Below, piece after piece: positions 12,084-64,000 of a DNA stretch of 64,000 nucleotides (position 1 is its first letter; each line of letters opens with the position of its first letter). The stretch is from NCBI GenBank assembly GCA_964016885.1, contig OZ024749.1, positions 33,728,001 through 33,792,000 of the forward strand. The letters run 5' to 3'. Source of the DNA: Eledone cirrhosa (lineage: Eukaryota). Made by a program: the position numbers and the translations under genes. Below the pieces are notes generated by a model that saw only the letters and a program-made list of their open reading frames with translations, made no database searches and was not told the DNA's origin.

Positions 12084-12563
12084 TATGACGTCTACTTTTT
12101 CTTCTTATACCACCACCACCACCACCACCACCACCACCACCACCACCACCAGCACCACCACCACCACCAGCACCACAACCACCATCACCACCACCACCAC
12201 CACCACCAGCACCACCACCAGCAGCAGCACCAGCACCACCACCACCACCAGCACCAGCACCACCACCACCACCAGACCCCCCCCCCCCCCCACCACCACC
12301 ACCACCACCACCACCAGCACCACCCCCACTACTACCCACTACCCCCCACCCCCACCCCACCCCACCACCACCACCACCACCAATATACGTGTATTATGTG
12401 TCTAAAGCTGGATTACATCTTGAAATTATTGAACTAAAAATCTAATACATTTATTGAGAAGTGTTAAAACGAAAAATCATTTCTTATTTATGGCTGCAAT
12501 TGCTGTTGGTAATATTGATGTTGGTGGTGGTGGTGGTTGTGGTGGTGGTGGTGGTGGTAGTGG

Positions 12564-12594
<31 letters not shown>

Positions 12595-12630
12595 GTTGGT
12601 GGTGATGGTGGGGCTGGTGGTGGTGGTGGT

Positions 12631-15600
12631 GGCGTTGTTGGAAGTGTTGTTGGTGTTGGTGGTGGTGTTGGTGTTGGAGTTGCTGGTGGAGTTGGTGGCG
12701 TTGGTGGCGTTGTTGGAAGTGTTGTTGGTGTTGGAGGTGGTGTTGGAGTTGGAGTTGCTGGTGGAGTTTGTGTTATTGTTGGAGGTGGTGATGTTGGTGT
12801 TGTTGTTGTTGTTGGAGTTGGTGGCGTTGGTGGCGTTGTTGGAAGTGTTGTTGGTGTTGGTGGTGGTGTTGGTGTTGGAGTTGCTGGTGGAGTTGGTGGC
12901 GTTGGTGGCGTTGTTGGAAGTGTTGTTGGTGTTGGAGGTGGTGTTGGAGTTGGAGTTGCTGGTGGAGTTTGTGTTATTGTTGGAGGTGGTGATGTTGGTG
13001 TTGTTGTTGTTGTTGGAGTTGGTGGCGTTGGTGGCGTTGTTGGAAGTGTTGTTGGTGTTGGTGGTGGTGTTGGTGTTGGAGTTGCTGGTGGAGTTTGTGT
13101 TATTGTTGGAGGTGGTGATGTTGGTGTTGTTGTTGTTGTTGGAGTTGGTGGCGTTGGTGGCGTTGTTGGTGTTGGAGGTGGTGTTGGAGTTGGAGTTGCT
13201 GGTGGAGTTTGTGTTATTGTTGGAGGTGGTGATGTTGGTGTTGTTGTTGTTGTTGGAGTTGGTGGCGTTGGTGGCGTTGTTGGTGTTGGAGGTGGTGTTG
13301 GTGTTGGAGTTGCTGGTAGAGTTTGTGTTATTGTTGGAGGTGGTGATGTTGGTGTTGTTGTTGTTGTTGGAGTTGGTGGCGTTGGTGGCGTTGTTGGTGT
13401 TGGAGGTGGTGTTGGAGTTGGAGTTGCTGGTGGAGTTTGTGTTATTGTTGGAGGTGGTGATGTTGGTGTTGTTGTTGTTGTTGGAGTTGGTGGCGTTGGT
13501 GGCGTTGTTGGAAGTGTTGTTGGTGTTGGAGGTGGTGTTGGTGTTGGAGTTGCTGGTGGAGTTTGTGTTATTGTTGGAGGTGGTGATGTTGGTGTTGTTG
13601 TTGTTGTTGGAGTTGGTGGCGTTGGTGGCGTTGTTGGAAGTGTTGTTGGTGTTGGTGGTGGTGTTGGTGTTGGAGTTGCTGGTGGAGTTTGTGTTATTGT
13701 TGGAGGTGGTGATGTTGGTGTTGTTGTTGTTGTTGGAGTTGGTGGCGTTGGTGGCGTTGTTGGAAGTGTTGTTGGTGTTGGAGGTGGTGTTGGTGTTGGA
13801 GTTGCTGGTAGAGTTTGTGTTATTGTTGGAGGTGGTGATGTTGGTGTTGTTGTTGTTGTTGGAGTTGGTGGCGTTGGTGGCGTTGTTGGTGTTGGAGGTG
13901 GTGTTGGAGTTGGAGTTGCTGGTGGAGTTTGTGTTATTGTTGGAGGTGGTGGTGTTGGTGTTGTTGTTGTTGTTGGAGTTGGTGGCGTTGGTGGCGTTGT
14001 TGGAAGTGTTGTTGGTGTTGGAGGTGGTGTTGGAGTTGGAGTTGCTGGTGGAGTTTGTGTTATTGTTGGAGGTGGTGGTGTTGGTGTTGTTGTTGTTGTT
14101 GTTGGAGTTGGTGGCGTTGGTGGCGTTGTTGGAAGTGTCGTTGGTGTTGGAGGTGGTGTTGGAGTTGGAGTTGCTGGTGGAGTTTGTGTTATTGTTGGAG
14201 GTGGTGATGTTGGTGTTGTTGTTGTTGTTGGAGTTGGTGGCGTTGATGGCGTTGTTGGAAGTGTTGTTGGTGTTGGAGGTGGTGTTGGAGTTGGAGTTGC
14301 TGGTGGAGTTTGTGTTATTGTTGGAGGTGGTGATGTTGGTGTTGTTGTTGTTGTTGGAGTTGGTGGCGTTGATGGCGTTGTTGGAAGTGTTGTTGGTGTT
14401 GGAGGTGGTGTTGGAGTTGGAGTTGCTGGTGGAGTTTGTGTTATTGTTGGAGGTGGTGATGTTGGTGTTGTTGTTGTTGTTGTTGTTGTTGGAGTTGGTG
14501 GCGTTGGTGGCGTTGGTGGCGTTGTTGGAAGTGTTGTTGGTGTTGGAGGTGGTGTTGGAGTTTGTGTTATTGTTTGAGGTGGTGATGTTGGTGTTGTTGT
14601 TGTTGTTGGAGTTGGTGGCGTTGGTGGCGTTGTTGGAAGTGTTGTTGGTGTTGGAGGTGGTGTTGGAGTTGGAGTTGCTGGTGGAGTTTGTGTTATTGTT
14701 GGAGGTGGTGATGTTGGTGTTGTTGTTGTTGTTGGAGTTGGTGGCGTTGGTGGCGTTGTTGGAAGTGTTGTTGGTGTTGGAGGTGGTGTTGGAGTTGGAG
14801 TTGCTGGTGGAGTTTGTGTTATTGTTGGAGGTGGTGATGTTGGTGTTGTTGTTGTTGTTGTTGGAGTTGGTGGCGTTGGTGGCGTTGTTGGAAGTGTTGT
14901 TGGTGTTGGAGGTGGTGTTGGAGTTGGAGTTGCTGGTGGAGTTTGTGTTATTGTTGGAGGTGGTGATGTTGGTGTTGTTGTTGTTGTTGTTGGAGTTGGT
15001 GGCGTTGGTGGCGTTGTTGGGAGTGTTGTTGGTGTTGGAGGTGGTGTTGGAGTTGGAGTTGCTGGTGGAGTTTGTGTTATTGTTGGAGGTGGTGGTGTTG
15101 GTGTTGTTGTTGTTGTTGTTGGAGTTGGTGGCGTTGGTGGCGTTGTTGGAAGTGTCGTTGGTGTTGGAGGTGGTGTTGGAGTTGGAGTTGCTGGTGGAGT
15201 TTGTGTTATTGTTGGAGGTGGTGATGTTGGTGTTGTTGTTGTTGTTGGAGTTGGTGGCGTTGATGGCGTTGTTGGAAGTGTTGTTGGTGTTGGAGGTGGT
15301 GTTGGAGTTGGAGTTGCTGGTGGAGTTTGTGTTATTGTTGGAGGTGGTGATGTTGGTGTTGTTGTTGTTGTTGGAGTTGGTGGCGTTGGTGGCGTTGTTG
15401 GAAGTGTTGTTGGTGTTGGAGGTGGTGTTGGAGTTGGAGTTGCTGGTGGAGTTTGTGTTATTGTTGGAGGTGGTGATGTTGGTGTTGTTGTTGTTGTTGG
15501 AGTTGGTGGCGTTGGTGGCGTTGTTGGAAGTGTTGTTGGTGTTGGAGGTGGTGTTGGAGTTGGAGTTGCTGGTGGAGTTTGTGTTATTGTTGGAGGTGGT

Positions 15601-16250
15601 GATGTTGGTGTTGTTGTTGTTGTTGGAGTTGGTGGCGTTGATGGCGTTGTTGGAAGTGTTGTTGGTGTTGGAGGTGGTGTTGGAGTTGGAGTTGCTGGTG
15701 GAGTTTGTGTTATTGTTGGAGGTGGTGATGTTGGTGTTGTTGTTGTTGTTGGAGTTGGTGGCGTTGATGGCGTTGTTGGAAGTGTTGTTGGTGTTGGAGG
15801 TGGTGTTGGTGTTGGAGTTGCTGGTGGAGTTTGTGTTATTGTTGGAGGTGGTGATGTTGGTGTTGTTGTTGTTGTTGGAGTTGGTGGCGTTGATGGCGTT
15901 GTTGGAAGTGTTGTTGGTGTTGGAGGTGGTGTTGGAGTTGGAGTTGCTGGTGGAGTTTGTGTTATTGTTGGAGGTGGTGATGTTGGTGTTGTTGTTGTTG
16001 TTGTTGTTGTTGGAGTTGGTGGCGTTGGTGGCGTTGGTGGCGTTGTTGGAAGTGTTGTTGGTGTTGGAGGTGGTGTTGGAGTTGGAGTTGCTGGTGGAGT
16101 TTGTGTTATTGTTGGAGGTGGTGATGTTGGTGTTGTTGTTGTTGTTGTTGTTGTTGGAGTTGGTGGCGTTGGTGGCGTTGGTGGCGTTGTTGGAAGTGTT
16201 GTTGGTGTTGGAGGTGGTGTTGTTGGTGTTGTTGTTGTTGTTGGTGTTGT
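12631..16250. repeat. 126-bp triplet-phased GT-rich minisatellite, about 28 units
   Basis: Period 126 (e.g. 13501 to 13627). Length variants are multiples of 3. Flanked by (GGT)n/(ACC)n and (GAT)n microsatellites. Confidence 0.95.
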
Positions 16251-16713
16251 TTTCAATGCCGCCAATCCTTTCTACTTCTGTATTCTGACTTCCGGTTCAA
16301 TGTCATTGTTTTGGAACATTTTTGAATAATAAATATGCCAGAATGGTTTATATCAACAACAACATCAACTATAACAACAACAACATTGATAATAATGCTG
16401 GTGATAATGGTGATGATGATGACGACGATGATGGCGATGGTGATGATGATGATGTCGACGACCTTGATGGCGATGATGATGTTGGTGGTGGTGGTGGTGG
16501 TCGTCGCCATGATGGTGATGACGATGATGATGATAATGATGATGATGATGATGATGGTGGCAGTGGCGGCGGTGGTGGTGGTGGTGGTGGTCATGATGAT
16601 GATGGTGATGACGTTGATGATAATGATGATGATGATGATGATGATAATTATGATGATGATGATGGTTGTGGTGGTGATGATGATGATGTTGATGATGATA
16701 ATGGTTGAGGTGT

Positions 16714-18117: not shown

Positions 18118-18187
<70 letters not shown>

Positions 18188-18188
<1 letters not shown>

Positions 18189-18276
18189 CGAAGGAAATGT
18201 GGTAGTAGAGTGGGTAATAGGAACGAGTAGGACCCCGACGGGTGAGCTCAAGCCGTTTCGACGGCTAATTCTGGAC
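18188..18276 (-). mobile_element. Family F copy, internally deleted, no inverted arm
   Basis: Deletion between two ggta motifs. Ends at the same ctggac boundary as the other copies. Confidence 0.85.
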
Positions 18277-18314
18277 TAAATAAAAATTATATATATTATA
18301 TATATATATATAAT

Positions 18315-20857: not shown

Positions 20858-20946
<89 letters not shown>

Positions 20947-20992
20947 ATAATGCGGCATACAGTATAAGGCGGCATACAGTATAATGCACATT

Positions 20993-21042
<50 letters not shown>

Positions 21043-21045
<3 letters not shown>

Positions 21046-21289
21046 TAAATCATGTCTTTAGAATTATTAGATAAAATATATACCGTTTCTTCTTCCAATT
21101 AGCATAATTAACCATATAAAAAATCAATTAGACCAAGCTATAAGAAGAAAGGCTCTTATATATTTTATCTAATAATTCTAAAGACATGATTATGATATAT
21201 TGCTCTGATTATTTAATTTATTAATTCTTCATAGAGCTTAAAAGTGACCGGTTGCAACATATATATCTATAACTTTATGTATATGTAAA

Positions 21290-21295
<6 letters not shown>
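21043..21295. mobile_element. (TA)n-embedded fold-back insertion
   Basis: tcataaatcatgtctttagaattattagataaaatatata is inverted at about 21157-21196. Confidence 0.65.
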
Positions 21296-21331
<36 letters not shown>

Positions 21332-21556
21332 TGTGCATTATACTGTATGCCGCCTAGCCTAGTTCAATTATCACTACTGCCACTACTGCTATCGCCACTA
21401 GCACCACTACCCCCTCATATTTAACTGTATTGACTATACAGCCTTGACAATTGTTTTTTTCTGTAGACAAATCCATCTCCCACTACTGCCGTATTGTAAG
21501 GTTGCCCATCATGTAACCCCCTACTGCTAAAGCACCTTCAAATGACCAAGATTTTT

Positions 21557-22082: not shown

Positions 22083-22162
<80 letters not shown>

Positions 22163-22164
<2 letters not shown>

Positions 22165-22357
22165 AACGAGTAGGACCCCGATGGCTGAGCTCAAGCCGTT
22201 TCGACGGCTAATTCTGGACTTGTCCAGAATTAGCCGTCGAAACGGCTTGAGCTCAGCCGTCGGGGTCCTACTCGTTCCTATTACCCACTCTACTACCCTA
22301 ACTATTGAGTACTTTGGTGCGTTATGGTCCACCTGGTTCCTTACCACATTTCCTCCG

Positions 22358-22359
<2 letters not shown>
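22163..22359 (+). mobile_element. Family F copy with near-perfect hairpin
   Basis: About 57-bp arms around a 'tt' apex, with (TA)n on both sides. Confidence 0.9.
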
Positions 22360-22417
<58 letters not shown>

Positions 22418-22748: not shown

Positions 22749-23930
22749 ATACATTGGGAGGGTCATGTTGCCAATAAGAAACACATGCACCAGTTGCTTT
22801 CACTTCAATTTATTATAATAAATTTATAAATTTAGGAATTTATAAATTTCTGGTTGGTTGGTTGGTTCCACAACCAGATGGTTGTTTATATATTGTCAAA
22901 GTTCTTTCGTCACACATTCTGTGACCTCTTCAATGACTGGGGATTCTTTTCTTTGTTTTTTGTGCCTCTCCTTTGTTCTGTCCTACGCCATCTTGTTTTT
23001 GTGTGTGTGTTGCGTGCTTAGTTTGCGCATATGTTACATCCGGGTGTCTGTGTGTGTTTATATTCGTTTATTTATTTGTTTATTTACATGTTACTGGTTG
23101 GTTGTTTGTTCTATATGCGTGTGTGTTTTCATTTTGTCCTTAATTGTAAGTTGTGATGTTGCTGTTCCACTCATGTTTTCTATTTAATTTTGGTTGTAAT
23201 TCATTTATGTTTATTGCCTCTGTGATTTGTCTAAACATTGCGCCTTTTCTGTGTGTAGATTCTATTTTTATTTCTATGTTCTCTAATTTACCCTTATGTT
23301 CTATTTTAGCATGTTGGTAGAGTACAGGTGATTCTTTACTATCTTGAAGGTCTCGCCAGTGTTCATTTATCCGTTCCCCTATACTACGAGCTGTCTCACC
23401 TATGTACACTATATTTTGTCCTTCAGTACATCTTATGCTATATACAACATTTCTAGTTTTACAGTTAATATGGGGGCTTAATTATTATACATTTCTTATC
23501 TATACAGGGAGGTCTTTGAAAAGGGTATGTATTGCTAATAAGTGTTTTTACTATCTTAATATTGAGTTCATGTTTATCTTGGGCCCTTCTAAATTTGTAA
23601 GCTAATTCACCTCTAGGGGTTGTATCGATGAACATTACACTCTGGTATTTATTGCTATCATACCATGAGTTTATTCTATTAGCCTTATTCCTAGTTCTTT
23701 CTATTCTATTCTAAAATTTGCTCCTATACAAGGGGCAGGTCCCATTTGTGTCATTATTTACCATTTTTTTCCCCATTTGGTTCTGGCTCCTCTATACACT
23801 CTGATTTTATCTCTCTGATTGTAACCAGGGAACTGCATACGGTGGATGAAGTGTTGTATGTGTCTCTCTAGTTCTTCGGGGTTGCACATGCGGGACACGT
23901 TTCTCATCACCCGTACCAAATCCACAACAT
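22744..23930 (-). pseudogene. 5'-truncated Penelope-like retroelement (RT thumb, GIY-YIG endonuclease, 3' pLTR)
   Basis: LVRVMRNVS...[11 protein letters not shown] (thumb), then NCKTRNVVYSIRC...YIGETARSIGERINEH...RQITEA...LNRKHEW. Frameshifted. Ends in (TA)n. Confidence 0.88.
22895..22937 (-). ncRNA. Minimal type I hammerhead-like motif in PLE pLTR
   Basis: gtca-TTGAAGA-ggtcacagaatgtgtgac-GAAA-gaac-TT-tgac. The homolog at 36245-36287 has core CTGAGGA. Confidence 0.7.
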
Positions 23931-31321: not shown

Positions 31322-32480
31322 TCAGATTATGATAACACCAATGACATCACGGTGCACTCGGATAAAACTGGTAACCTCTACTTCGTCAACCCCGACAGAT
31401 ACCACACACTGATCAGGAGCAGCCTAAACTCCACCTATAAAAAGGCTAACCACTCATGCATCGAGGACATAAATCGAGATGGACAACAAATTACCTCCAG
31501 CCTCGGGGTCGCCGACCGCACGGAACCCCTAGACCCACGGACTCCCTACTTCACACTGAAGGACCACAAATCCGATTTCGACTGTAAACCATCTATCAGG
31601 CTTATAAACCCAACGAAGTCCGACATAGGGAGAATCAGTAAAAAAAATCCTAGACCGCGTTATACCAAAAGTTAAGCAAAACTCCAGACTTAGCCTCTGG
31701 GTCAACACCCAGGAAGTAACCTCATGGTTCAGCAATATGGAGGACAAACGAGACACAAAATTCATCCAGTTTGACATAAAGAGTTACTATTCTTCAATTA
31801 CCTTACCGCTCCGTACGGCCGCCTTGGATTTTGCCAAGACACTTGCGCCCATCACCGACCAGGAAAGAAATATCATCCTCCACGCCAGGAAGACAGTCCT
31901 ACTTTTCGACAACTCCAAATGGATAAAGAGAGCTCCCTACTCCCCCTTCAACGTCAGTATGGGCGCGACGGATTCGGCCGAGGTCACAGATCTCATAGGA
32001 TTATTCCTACTAGTTAAACTCACCGATATGTTTCCTGCATTCGGCGGTGGATTGTACAGTGATGATGGGCTCCTTATCCTTAAAAGGTACAACCCCAGTA
32101 GTACAGACCGAGTCCGTAAACAATTAATCAGCTTCTTCCGCGACTGGGGATTTAAAATAACCCTACAAACGTCCCTAACCCGAGTCAACTTCCTGGACGT
32201 TACCCTTGACCTCGATAATGATCTGTACTACCCATACAGGAAACCAAACGATAACCTGCACTACATCCACCGCCGGTCAAACCATCCTAGAAACATCACC
32301 AATAACCTGGTTAAAAACATCTCCCTCCGCATATCTCGTTTGTCCGCTAATGAGCAGATATTCGAGGAACATGCGCCTTATTACAACCAGGCCCTCAGGC
32401 GGAGTGGCTTCCGGGAGGAAATATCCTACTGTCCAGCTTCCATTAGCGGAACCAGCAGGCGACACCGCCGCTCACGCAAC
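31322..32480 (+). pseudogene. Penelope-like reverse transcriptase fragment (probably Naiad-type), frameshifted
   Basis: SDKT..TLKDHK..RLINPTKSDIGRISK, frameshift at the A run near 31640, then FIQFDIKSYYSSI, VSMGATDSAEVTDLIG, GLYSDDGL (YRDD expected), VNFLDVTLDL, YRKPND, SNHP. (TA)n on both sides. Confidence 0.9.
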
Positions 32481-32562
<82 letters not shown>

Positions 32563-33103
32563 CGAGGTTTTTTATATGAAATCGTGTGTCGAAACAGATA
32601 TTGTTATATTTGCGTAATATTACCAGAATTAATAACAGAACACACTCACTGTTTGGTTGGTTTTCGCTTCTCGCTGTCTTTTATATCTGCGATCTAACTT
32701 ACTCGGTCCTCAATGTTGCCATTGACTGACCGACGGTCAAAAATAATACAGATACAATATAGACACAAACACATATATATAGTTTACATAATTTACATAA
32801 ATCTTTCGTTGCACATCTGCAACATCGTCAGTGGTGTTATATTCTTTGTTCCTCCTGTTGTGTTGTATGTCTACGCCATTTTTTTTATTCAGTCTGTCTA
32901 TATATTTATTTATTTATTTGCTTGTTTGTTTATCTTATTTTATTTTGTCTTCTTTGCGCATGCGTTTGCGTGTGTGCATAGTGTTATGTGTGCTGTGTGA
33001 CTAGTGTGTATAGTGTTGTGTCTGCTGGGTGACTAGTGTGTGTTTATGTGCTTGTTGTTATTGTGCTTGTGTATGTATTTATTTATCTTATTTTAATTTA
33101 TTT

Positions 33104-33551
33104 TAAATCCCTGATCAGCAAAACCTACCCTTTTAAGAAAACCCACTGTACCAATAGGAAATGTATTATATGTAAGGTGAACCCCCGGATAAACTGTAAA
33201 ACTAGAAACGTAGTCTATAGCATAAGATGTACAGAGGGTACTTGCAGAAACATGACAACAACATACATAGGTGAGACAGCTCGTAGTATAGGTGAAAGGA
33301 TAGACCAACACTGGGGGGAACTAAAAGGACGAAAAAACGGGTCAGTACTATACGAACATGCTAGACAACAACATGACGGTAACATAGACAACATAGAAAT
33401 TAGAATAATATCTAAACATAGGAATGACCCAGCAGATAGGCAAATCAGAGAGGCCAGTGAAATAGAAATTAGAAGACCAAAGCTAAACAGAAAGAATGAC
33501 AACAACAACACCCAAACAACAACAACACCCAAACAAACAACACTGACCTAA
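33104..33551 (+). pseudogene. GIY-YIG endonuclease domain of a PLE (5'-truncated open frame)
   Basis: CTNRKCIIC...CKTRNVVYSIRC...YIGETARSIGERIDQH...RQIREA...LNRK. Confidence 0.88.
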
Positions 33552-33832
33552 GAGAAGTATAAATAAGTAAATAAAATAAAATAAGATAAATAAATACATA
33601 CACAAGCACAATAACAACAAGCACATAAACACACACTAGTCACCCAGCAGACACAACACTATACACACTAGTCACACAGCACACATAACACGATGCACAC
33701 ACGCAAACGCATGCGCAAAGAAGACAAAATAAAATAAGATAAACAAACAAGCAAATAAATAAATATATAGACAGACTGAATAAAAAAATGGCGTAGACAT
33801 ACAACACAACAGGAGGAACAAAGAATATAACA

Positions 33833-33872
33833 CCACTGACGATGTTGCAGATGTGCAACGAAAGATTTATGT
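33833..33872 (+). ncRNA. Hammerhead-like motif (mirror copy at 32795-32834, -)
   Basis: CTGACGA-t-gttgca-gatg-tgcaac-GAAA-gatt-TA. Stem I is weak. Confidence 0.55.
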
Positions 33873-34077
33873 AAATTATGTAAACTATATATATGTGTTT
33901 GTGTCTATATTGTATCTGTATTATTTTTGACCGTCGGTCAGTCAATGGCAACATTGAGGACCGAGTAAGTTAGATCGCAGATATAAAAGACAGCGAGAAG
34001 CGAAAACCAACCAAACAGTGAGTGTGTTCTGTTATTAATTCTGGCAATATTACGCAAATATGACCCTCCCCAAGTAT

Positions 34078-34123
<46 letters not shown>

Positions 34124-41948: not shown

Positions 41949-42755
41949 GAAAGACGTAAAATAAGAAAATTTTAAAAATTAAAAATTAACTTACTTACTA
42001 AAATTTTCACTCCAACTAATTTGTTTCTGTAATGGGATAAAGATAGTTACGCAATGTAACCATCGAGAATTCGTTACGTCATCAGGTAGTCTATTCTCAG
42101 CTAAGTCTCCAGGCAATGCGCGGACACTAGGGACTCATAAAAAAATAATTCGGTGGATGGAACAGCTAGCGGGGACTGAATTCCATAGCACTGAAAACGT
42201 TCACTGCCTCTGGTCAAGTGGCAGATTCTAAAGAATCAATCACGTGACACTGAGGCTAGTCAGTAGGCGTGGGATGGTATTACTACAATGAGTTAGCAGT
42301 GGATTTGGCAAGTTTGCTCAACAAATAAATAATTTGGAGATAAATATAGAGAATTAGTATATTTACCAACATATGCGTACAGATGTACACTAATGCTAGC
42401 AAATACATAAGTTATGTCATAGTACCTAGGTGGTTCAATGCAGGGGGTGCAGAACAATTATATGAAAGACGTAAAATAAGAAAATTTTAAAAATTAAAGA
42501 TTAACTTACTTACTAACATTTTCACTCCAACTAATTAGTTTCTGTAATGGGATAAAGATAGTTACGCAATGTAACCATCGAGAATTTTAGTAAGTAAGTT
42601 AATTTTTAATTTTTAAAATTTTCTTATTTTACGTCTTTCATATGTTCTGCATCCCCCTGCATTGAACCACCTAGGTACTATGACATAACTTATGTATTTG
42701 CTAGCATTAGTGTACATCTGTACGCATATGTTGGTAAATATACTAATTCTCTCTC
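41948..42755 (-). mobile_element. Non-coding 515-bp monomer in partial tandem plus inverted arm, with hammerhead-like motif
   Basis: 41949-42071 is repeated at 42464-42586. 42583-42750 is inverted relative to about 42346-42520. CTGATGA...GAAA lies at 42012-42090 (-). Confidence 0.7.
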
Positions 42756-43013
42756 TCTATATATATATATATATATTTATATATATAGTAATAATAATAA
42801 ATTTGAAGACCAAAATCCAAAGAGGGCTCGATAAGGATAAATATATATCAAATATATAAGAACCGTAGAGCAACGTTTTTTGAAATATTTACTTCTGCGT
42901 TCACAGATTGATTTTTTTTAGTTTCAGAAGATCCCGTTAAGGGTGAAAGCAGCGATTCTTTGCTTGAACTTTAATCTGTTATTTTAATAAATATATATAT
43001 ATATATATATATA

Positions 43014-48827: not shown

Positions 48828-49243
<416 letters not shown>

Positions 49244-49560
49244 ATATATATATATATATAAATATAATTCAGCGAGAATCACATTTCGGCTGGTAGAAAA
49301 AGCGAAACGAAACGCAAAATCGTAGAAACGCTGGCAAGCGCTCAATAGTTAAAAGAACCCAGAGCTAAACAATGTTAAAACGCCATACAAACTGAAAAAG
49401 TGGTTAAGAAGGTATTAACCACCTAAGCCAAAAAACAAATCAAGCTAAACAGGTCAAACAAAATAAATGAATGATAAAAACCAAATGGAACTGGTGGTAA
49501 AATCCAAATGCAGGGTTTCTATGACACCTAAATCAATATGTATATATAGATATATATTAT

Positions 49561-51844: not shown

Positions 51845-51901
<57 letters not shown>

Positions 51902-51969
51902 GGTTTCTACAGGACTAGAACTGTTTCATCCGGGAAGCTGTGGTTCCCCCCTATTGAACCCGGGATAAA

Positions 51970-54251: not shown

Positions 54252-54320
<69 letters not shown>

Positions 54321-54323
<3 letters not shown>

Positions 54324-54465
54324 AACGAGTAGGACCCCGACGGCTGAGCTGAAGCCGCTTCGACGGCTAATTCTGGACCTCGTTCCTATTACCCACTCTA
54401 CTACCCTAAGTATTGAGTACTTTGGTGCGTTATGGTCCACCTGGTTCCTTACCACATTTCCTTCG

Positions 54466-54467
<2 letters not shown>
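54321..54467 (+). mobile_element. Family F copy with part of one arm deleted
   Basis: The inverted arm is joined directly to ctcgttcctattaccc. Confidence 0.88.
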
Positions 54468-54509
<42 letters not shown>

Positions 54510-57361: not shown

Positions 57362-57364
<3 letters not shown>

Positions 57365-57556
57365 GTAGGTCCCGGGTTGAGTCGGGGATAACCACAGTAA
57401 GTAAGGTACTCAATACATGGCAGAGTAAACATTTTTTTATTTTATAGAAGGAGCTTCTACAGGACTAGTACTGTATCATTCAGATGAAATCTTCAGGAAG
57501 CTTCCTGAAGATTTCATCTGAATGAAACAGTACTAGTCCTGTAGAAGCTCCTTCTA
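57362..57556 (-). mobile_element. (TA)n-embedded fold-back element with hammerhead core in each arm
   Basis: ~110-bp near-perfect palindrome at 57444-57557 containing CTGAAGA-tttcatctgaat-GAAA-cagtactag-TC. A relative is at 51901-51970. Confidence 0.75.
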
Positions 57557-57568
57557 TATAATTAAAAA

Positions 57569-57602
<34 letters not shown>

Positions 57603-61610: not shown

Positions 61611-61939
<329 letters not shown>

Positions 61940-62409
61940 GAGTTGAGTTTTATTGTAGCACAATAAAGCAATGCAAATATCGGATAAGTAGCACTTATAT
62001 ATAATTGTTTGTACTTTTGGCACAAGGCTAACAATTACCCAGTGCATTACTGGTACTTTATTTTATCGACCCCGTAAGGATGAAAGGCAAAGTTAAACTC
62101 GGCGGGATTTGAACTCAGAATGGCAAGAGCCGTAACTGTATGCTGATTTAACACTTCACTGCTCGCAAGTGTTTTTTAAGCTTCATATCATGTCTCCCTA
62201 TTTTATCTGATGAGAACGCAAATATCATCCCATGATGATATTTGTTTTTGAAATGCGCATAATAAAATACATGGAACATTTTTAACCATCTTTTGATTTT
62301 ATATATATATATATATATATATAACGAAGGAAGTGTGGTAAGGAACCAGGCGGACCATAACGCACCAAAGTACTCAATACGAGTGTGTATGATTGTGTAT
62401 AGAAGATTA

Positions 62410-62609
62410 TATTAATAAAAGGAATTCCTAATTTGTCTGATTTACTCGTTTTATTTACAATCCTTTAAAATTTATAATGGTATTAGAATGAAATAGTATG
62501 GTAGAATATTAAATGTTAAGTGTTAATTGAACAAGTACTTTCATGCTTTCGCAATCTTCAGGTTCCGAATGTGTGGTGACAGTCAAGTTTGCAATTTTCA
62601 ACTGTGAAA

Positions 62610-62671
<62 letters not shown>

Positions 62672-62931
62672 CAGTATATATATATATATATACATATATA
62701 TATTCAACAGTATATATATACATATATATATATATTCAACAGTTGAAAATTGCAAACTTGACTGTCACCACACATTATGAACCTGAAGATTGCGAAAGCA
62801 TGAAAGTACTTGTTCAATTAACACTTAACATTTAATATTCTACCATACTATTTCATTCTAATACCATTATAAATTTTAAAGGATTGTAAATAAAACGAGT
62901 AAATCAGACAGAGTTGGAATTCCTTTTATTA

Positions 62932-62932
<1 letters not shown>
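62410..62932. mobile_element. ~190-bp inverted arms around a (TA)n apex, each with a hammerhead
   Basis: 62410-62605 is the reverse complement of about 62739-62932. Confidence 0.85.
62778..62816 (+). ncRNA. Minimal type I hammerhead ribozyme (mirror copy at 62529-62565, -)
   Basis: tgaac-CTGAAGA-ttgc-gaaa-gcat-GAAA-gtac-TT-gttca, with a palindromic stem III. Confidence 0.8.
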
Positions 62933-62989
<57 letters not shown>

Positions 62990-63255
62990 TTTAGGAATAG
63001 AATCTTTCACCGTATTTGTTTTACTAAAGAAATTTTAGCCTCATGACAAAGATAAGGGTTCAACTCCCCTGTACTCTATGAAATGGAAAATAGAAATTCT
63101 CATCTTTTTCCATTTCATAGAGTGTACTATCAGGCTAAAATGCCTTTAGTATAAAAAAAATACGGCGAAAGCTTCTATTTCTAATTCCAAAACACCCACC
63201 CGCACACGCATGTAAATATATATATATATAAACACACACACACACACACACACTC

Positions 63256-63368
<113 letters not shown>

Positions 63369-63403
63369 CATATCTATATCTCTCTCTCTATATATATATA
63401 TAT

Positions 63404-63829
63404 AACAAAGGAATTGTGGTAAGGAACCAGATGGACTATAACGCACCAGAGTACTCAATACTTAGGGTAGTAGAGTGAGAAATAGGAAAAAGTATGACCC
63501 CGACGGCAGAGCTCAAGCCGTTTCGACGGCTATTTCTGGCTATTTCGACGGCTATTTTCTGAGTCCAGAAACAGCCGTCGAAACGGCTTGAGCTCTGCCG
63601 TCGGGGTCATACTTTTTCCTATATATATATATATATATATATAGGAACAAGTAAGACCCCGACGGCTGAGCTCAAGCCGTTTCGACGGCTAGTCCAGAAT
63701 TAGCCGTCGAAACGGCTTGAGCACAGCCGTCGGGGTCTTACTTGTTCCTATTACCCACTCTACTACCCTAAGTATTGAGTACTTTGGTGCGTTATAGTCC
63801 ACCTGGTTCCTTACCACATTTCCTTCGTT
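63404..63829. mobile_element. Two family F fold-back copies in opposite orientation
   Basis: 63404-63620 and 63643-63829, separated by (TA)n. A fragment is also at 62323-62380. Confidence 0.9.
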
Positions 63830-64000
63830 ATATATATATACATAACAGAGTGAGAGCGAATCAATTGGAGATTTTAAAGATAATGCGACGGAAAAAAAAC
63901 CCTTACATAAATATGCGTCTTACATTAATATCTGTATATAGAATGGGGAGACATATTTATGTAGTATTTTAGTATGTTTATACATTTCAACACATATCAA

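Follow-up and report, generated by a model that had tools for sequence, protein, structure and literature searches.

Penelope-like elements have been published with an inverted 5'-truncated copy, a tail at one side only and a bias toward (TA)n targets (PMC8557442, PMC3846280). The tails given in these sources measure 30-40 bp, and the (TA)n bias is tied there to a CX2-5CxxC motif. In PMC3846280, palindromes at the junction are taken as a sign of self-priming, and head-to-head junctions are said to require an antisense template. The account in PMC11167929 has both target strands cut and extended, with two reverse transcriptase (RT) start sites defining the tail. The formation of tandem and inverted Penelope-like structures is listed in PMC8557442 as still unexplained. 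The repeat described here, family F, has this already published inverted-copy-plus-tail layout, and the best explanation is that it is a short non-autonomous element new to the known class. A literature search found no description of family F and no arm-concordance test in the main texts returned; supplementary repeat libraries (e.g., PMC13282606) may hold the family. Among the repeats of a Penelope-rich animal genome such a family is nothing unusual. Its subfamily-diagnostic alleles in both arms, together with its high abundance, make the question of one versus two templates countable in a long-read assembly.

Anatomy of the facing pair and of family F

The window is the whole stretch of DNA that was analyzed, 64,000 nucleotides long. 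Positions 63404-63829 consist of two family F copies, face to face, with an 18-base (TA)n run between them (63623-63640) as the target that separates both. The order within each copy is (TA)n, a tail of ~80 bp, an arm of ~60 bp, a junction, the inverted arm and (TA)n, and the inverted arm ends flush in (TA)n. Copy 1 starts with its one-sided tail of ~80 bp (63403-63481, minus strand, the strand being the inferred RNA direction from junction to tail end), which departs from the window majority at 7 of 82 columns. The tail-bearing inner arm follows (63482-63539, minus strand) with subfamily alleles at 63489, 63490, 63495, 63508 and 63533, then a copy-specific junction of short re-copies of the arm end (63540-63562), and then the tail-less inverted outer arm, flush in (TA)n (63563-63622, plus strand), with a private one-armed change at 63572. 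In copy 2 the tail-less inverted outer arm (63641-63691, minus strand) is 9 bases shorter at its junction end, the tail-bearing inner arm (63692-63751, plus strand) has mirrored alleles at 63738 and 63743 and a private one-armed change at 63723, and the one-sided tail lies at 63752-63830 on the plus strand. The two tails differ at 6 of 82 columns. Within the inner arm of copy 2, positions 63709-63731 resemble half a hammerhead, namely the 3' half of type I (GAAA, stem III, GTC). A reading of 63404-63829 as a single symmetric element with two inserts was rejected, since tail plus arm is the unit in all 8 copies.

A BLAST search of the family F parts against the window gave 8 body copies and one tail-only fragment (48952-48994). 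All 8 body copies have a one-sided tail, 7 of them have an inverted second arm, and the outer ends are fixed. In addition to the facing pair, the copies are at 529-724 (tail left), 18186-18278 (also labeled 18183; internal tail deletion, without inverted arm), 22160-22360 (tail right), 49034-49245 (also labeled 49031; no arm substitutions in 51 columns and a unique junction), 54319-54468 (tail-bearing arm of only 11 bases, tail-less arm full length) and 61611-61815 (three one-armed and no mirrored changes). Family F has no open reading frame and is ~200 bp long. Its inverted repeat starts ~80 bp inside, one element end being the tail, and the two termini do not mirror each other as inverted repeats. 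The host DNA is AT-rich and microsatellite-rich and is perhaps that of an octopus; TA runs contain or adjoin all seven copies that were checked, and the (TA)n flanks make any target-site duplication unreadable.

Other identities were considered and rejected. The window contains no direct tandem of family F units and family F has no CUGANGA core, and for these reasons a retrozyme was dismissed. Helentrons and HINEs have a TT target, fixed subterminal repeats and a fixed 3' stem-loop; family F targets (TA)n and has a loop that varies per copy. A miRNA hairpin was rejected as well. The whole-window Rfam search gave mostly microsatellite-driven miRNA matches below the gathering score among the best 150 of 473 matches, and the family F unit folds no better than its shuffles (z 0.0-0.5), as do both hammerhead-pattern stretches. 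Exact-pattern scans gave 0 matches in metagenome contigs, prokaryote genomes and viral contigs.

Coding and sister elements in the window

A coding Penelope-like 3' fragment with a layout like that of family F lies at 32562-34090 (plus strand), set in (TA)n. Its inverted arms of 501 bp are 98.2% alike, and a tail of ~35 bp is found on the short arm only. The GIY-YIG frame between the arms (33102-33548) contains CX4CXXC, CCHH and YIG-type motifs, as these motifs are named in PMC8557442. Two of 89 candidate homologs match it (E values 4e-21 and 6e-21), and one of them has an upstream RT YVDD motif. A 16-bp deletion sets the tailed arm apart from the other, and both here and in copy 54319 the longer arm is the tail-less one and each arm has sequence absent from its partner. 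Pfam searches left the GIY-YIG and RT fragments unnamed, and PDB sequence searches did the same for the coding fragments. The family F tail is absent from the window's coding fragments, and an autonomous element with the 3' end of family F was not found in the window.

Two sister elements share tail sequence with family F. The element at 62322-62936 has the first 61 bases of the family F tail, 90-97% alike, and 198-bp inverted arms that are 97.5% alike, both with a minimal type I hammerhead pattern (62561 and 62783). The element at 57362-57570 has a tail of ~70 bp, inverted arms 95.6% alike and a hammerhead pattern at 57505; a partial relative of it is seen at 51875-51929. An 11-base tail motif is common to these two families and family F, and it is a possible recognition site of the protein. 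The tightened hammerhead pattern scan gave 3 hits, compared with 0.01 per shuffled window, and a looser first scan had given a fourth hit at 62199, outside the sister elements. In family F itself the hammerhead content is only the half composed of GAAA, a 5-pair stem and GTC, found in 2 of 5000 shuffles with a pattern that was chosen post hoc. Targeted Rfam scans gave no hammerhead hit for family F or the two sister elements.

Several other features of the window were recorded. An open frame of 285 codons at 31629-32483 (plus strand) has RT-like motifs and no Pfam hit, and presumably resembles the RT of Naiad-type Penelope-like elements. A frameshifted remnant at 23158-23928 (minus strand) is a second Penelope-like copy with RT-thumb and GIY-YIG. 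Further long inverted-repeat elements adjoin TA runs at 42323-42778, 20894-21355 and 62990-63200. A dispersed SINE-like repeat of ~140 bp has 22 matches, at 62000-62140 and 21 other places, and a Pro/Thr-rich, mucin-like frame of 1264 codons runs over a 126-bp tandem repeat at 12480-16271 (minus strand).

Mirrored and one-armed changes

The arms were compared with the majority of the 14 window arms as reference, over 51 shared columns and in the six full two-armed copies; copies 18183 and 54319, which have no full second arm, were left out of the change counts. The six copies have 6 mirrored and 8 one-armed changes. The preliminary description had reported substitutions mirrored in both arms of the two facing copies, and these are real: all 6 mirrored changes of the 51-column total are there, and the six strings that it quoted are present at 63485-63499, 63505-63512, 63592-63599, 63605-63619, 63648-63658 and 63734-63744. 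Within the 51 columns, 4 changes are mirrored in copy 63404, to which column 52 adds another (63533/63571), and its one-armed change is limited to 63572; copy 63641-63830 shows 2 mirrored changes, with 63723 as its single one-armed one. No mirrored change occurs in the remaining 4 copies, which account for the other 6 one-armed ones. Contrary to the generalization that arms within a copy resemble each other more than arms of different copies, no pairing is visible in these 4, the arms differing from each other by 0-3 and the arms of other copies being equally close. Nor do the other copies uniformly have cgagtaggacc, as had been stated, since one arm of copy 61611 reads caag and its partner tgag.

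The probability of independent same-letter changes at the same 4 of 51 sites is ~5e-8. When arms are re-paired across the 6 copies, P is 24/720, a value limited by there being only 2 informative copies. Left and right arms as two clades, the outcome that the preliminary description had set against its own reading, is not what the 14-arm tree gives: inner arms are rejected as a single clade (p-AU 0.0009), and the grouping is by locus rather than by side. The arm pair of 63404 is the only supported clade (100/97, in a tree whose bootstrap had not settled), and the arm pair labeled 63833 is not resolved as one. Arms do pair by subfamily, which had been proposed as the check on per-insertion synthesis; the copying of a symmetric master would give the same pairing.

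Public reads show what kind of change is mirrored. Four of 23 listed public runs were matched to 63404-64000 at 80% likeness, with 15 small-share rows unused. Run X1 is probably the window's own sample, and run X21 consists of raw RAD reads from another sample with the same species label. The 27,627 X1 contigs and 26,304 X21 reads matched to 63404-64000, compared with one contig for the unique flank, indicate that family F is very abundant, although summed contig depth was not taken as copy number. The X21 allele shares given here come from a single RAD library biased to AATT cut sites, in which reads go to the better-fitting copy and the arms of one copy are unlinked, and they are shares among the rows listed, which do not include rows for 63490, 63495 and 63508. 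The copy 1 letter was found in 1710 of 10757 reads at 63738 (77 starts) and in 1988 of 10372 at 63725 (69 starts), the majority C at 63489 in only 533 of 3303, and at 63738 and 63743 the other letters among the rows listed leave up to ~41% for the letter of copy 2. The mirrored substitutions are thus not private, contrary to what had been claimed, their alleles being frequent in family reads from another sample (16-19%, up to ~41%). At the one-armed sites 63572 and 63723, by contrast, 341 of 352 and 10271 of 10361 reads (97-99%) differ from the window letter. Wherever mirrored alleles were readable they are shared subfamily alleles, and the truly private letters are one-armed, which argues against later arm-to-arm conversion.

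Other observations come from the same runs. The letter at 63437 and 63796 is common to both facing tails, yet is found in only 6-8% of the X21 reads matched there, which suggests either that the two copies had a common donor lineage or that a short conversion took place locally between them. Thousands of X21 reads have their loose ends in (TA)n. An indel-bearing arm subfamily is seen in reads and contigs, and loose ends occur at 63539, 63562 and 63745. Loose ends in three runs indicate a longer form of family F that continues past the junction end of the arm, and one contig of run X5 has a 93-letter overhang past this end. Run X5 is from a second organism, in which family F is also found (48 contigs matched).

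The junctions behave differently from the arms. All seven two-armed junctions differ, including that of copy 49031 with its 0 arm substitutions, and they consist of short re-copies of the arm end with short palindromes, leaving the arms 0-25 bases apart. Read depth in the junction bin 63544-63563 is 1.3% (X1) and 1.6% (X21) of that in the arm bin 63504-63523. In copy 1 the 63533 allele predates the junction, both extra re-copies carrying it. The same hexamer ends 6 of 8 inner arms, and junction end points are clustered more tightly than random 5' truncation would suggest, which counts against the explanation that we prefer.

Origin of the inverted arm and comparison with known systems

We think it likely that family F belongs to the non-autonomous Penelope-like elements and that its second arm, inverted and 5'-truncated, arises during insertion. 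Both arms are probably reverse-transcribed from donor RNA at each insertion. An RT-endonuclease of the Neptune/Nematis or Naiad type would nick both strands in (TA)n; one cDNA would start at the tail end and a second at an inner start site, giving one tailed and one flush arm. Synthesis of both cDNAs would end at about the same point of a longer RNA, and the 3' ends of the two would be joined head to head with the use of short templated re-copies. The subfamily alleles of the donor would thus be present in both arms and later mutations would be one-armed. The earlier suggestion that both arms were templated at insertion survives in outline, given the shared subfamily alleles and copy-specific junctions. 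Its phrase "one molecule" goes further than the data, because a pair of RNAs produced by one active donor would give the same picture. Both informative copies are concordant, and a single dominant donor would also give concordance. Counted against synthesis at insertion, besides the clustered junction end points, are the length of the family F tail, the hammerhead pattern of at most one half, the Rfam and folding results, the fragments left unnamed by Pfam, the missing autonomous partner in the window, the small number of copies (2) that inform on mirroring and the limits of the read shares.

A one-template variant, in which a single cDNA folds back and primes itself on a short palindrome, takes a minority share of the confidence that we place in synthesis at insertion and is counted within it. 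The concordance of both informative copies and the short palindromes and arm-end re-copies at the junctions agree with it, and PMC3846280 infers self-priming from such palindromes, although by the same source head-to-head junctions need an antisense template. In copy 54319 and in the element at 32562-34090, each arm holds sequence missing from its partner; two primings fit these arrangements, whereas fold-back of one cDNA needs an extra deletion. That family F was instead copied whole from hairpin-shaped, symmetric subfamily masters, either as a MITE-like DNA element or through a read-through RNA of the full hairpin, with the tip later remodeled by nuclease and end joining, is in our judgment unlikely. 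Such masters correctly predict that mirrored alleles are subfamily alleles and are consistent with the fixed tail-less end, yet the termini are not mutually inverted, the tail is missing from none of the 8 window copies, and the layout is the same as that of the GIY-YIG-coding element in the window. One near-palindromic junction type does reach a contig depth of 112 in X1, compared with 4.93 for the unique flank, and palindrome tips are unstable, a point that we counted for the masters; against this, 7 of 7 junctions differ even where the arms have no substitutions, and how each master became symmetric for new alleles is left without an account. Synthesis at each insertion is favored over a symmetric master because the tail is one-sided and the junctions are unique. 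Less probable still is that the likeness of the arms arose only after insertion, either through gene conversion from arm to arm, which the preliminary description had offered as its alternative, or through hairpin repair with template switching. The arms are close enough to pair at 0-25 bases, and local conversion could explain the tail letter at 63437 and 63796 seen in 6-8% of reads, but one-armed changes make up 8 of the 14 seen in the six full copies, the two private changes are among those in one arm only while the readable mirrored ones are family-wide, and the facing tails still have 6 differences in 82 columns.

More tentatively, family F and its tail-sharing sisters may form a MITE-like class of miniature inverted-repeat Penelope dependants, produced by twin priming at two RT start sites and head-to-head joining of the two cDNAs. 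If so, their many subfamily-marked copies would record the number of templates, one or two RNAs, from genome sequence alone.

Hairpins of this kind are easily mislabeled as MITEs, and the likeness of their arms tells of the time elapsed since insertion, not of conversion. MITEs, including the palindromic Angel of zebrafish, are short, abundant, hairpin-forming and TA-flanked, as is family F. They differ from family F in that only one end of the latter is formed by the inverted repeat and the center changes from copy to copy; neither terminal inverted repeats at both ends nor a uniform internal sequence was found. The closer likeness is to Neptune, Nematis, Naiad and Penelope/Poseidon, described in PMC8557442 and PMC3846280 as a 5'-truncated copy with an adjacent inverted copy. 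Like family F, these endonuclease-bearing Penelope-like elements have a tail at one end, junction palindromes and (TA)n targets that hide target duplications. Unlike them, family F is without an open reading frame, is ~200 bp long with a tail of ~80 bp instead of 30-40 bp, and has a half hammerhead-like motif and tightly clustered truncation points. The Chlamys dependants of PMC8557442, such as MRC1, are short and non-coding and share their 3' ends with other families, as does family F; however, they are described as head-to-tail multicopy insertions in algae, and the hairpin of family F is joined head to head and lies in a genome that is animal-like. Non-LTR retrozymes (PMC7229834; bioRxiv 10.64898/2026.07.22.740005) are described as small non-autonomous elements related to Penelope-like elements with type I hammerheads, but they are direct tandems of 150-450 bp units with complete ribozymes, whereas family F consists of an inverted pair that contains no more than half a ribozyme. 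The Poseidon of Anolis, PAc (PMC11167929), is autonomous and was tested in vitro, unlike family F, but as reported there its tailed and flush ends arise from two RT start sites, both target strands are cut and extended, and its targets are AT-rich, features that match those seen or proposed for family F.
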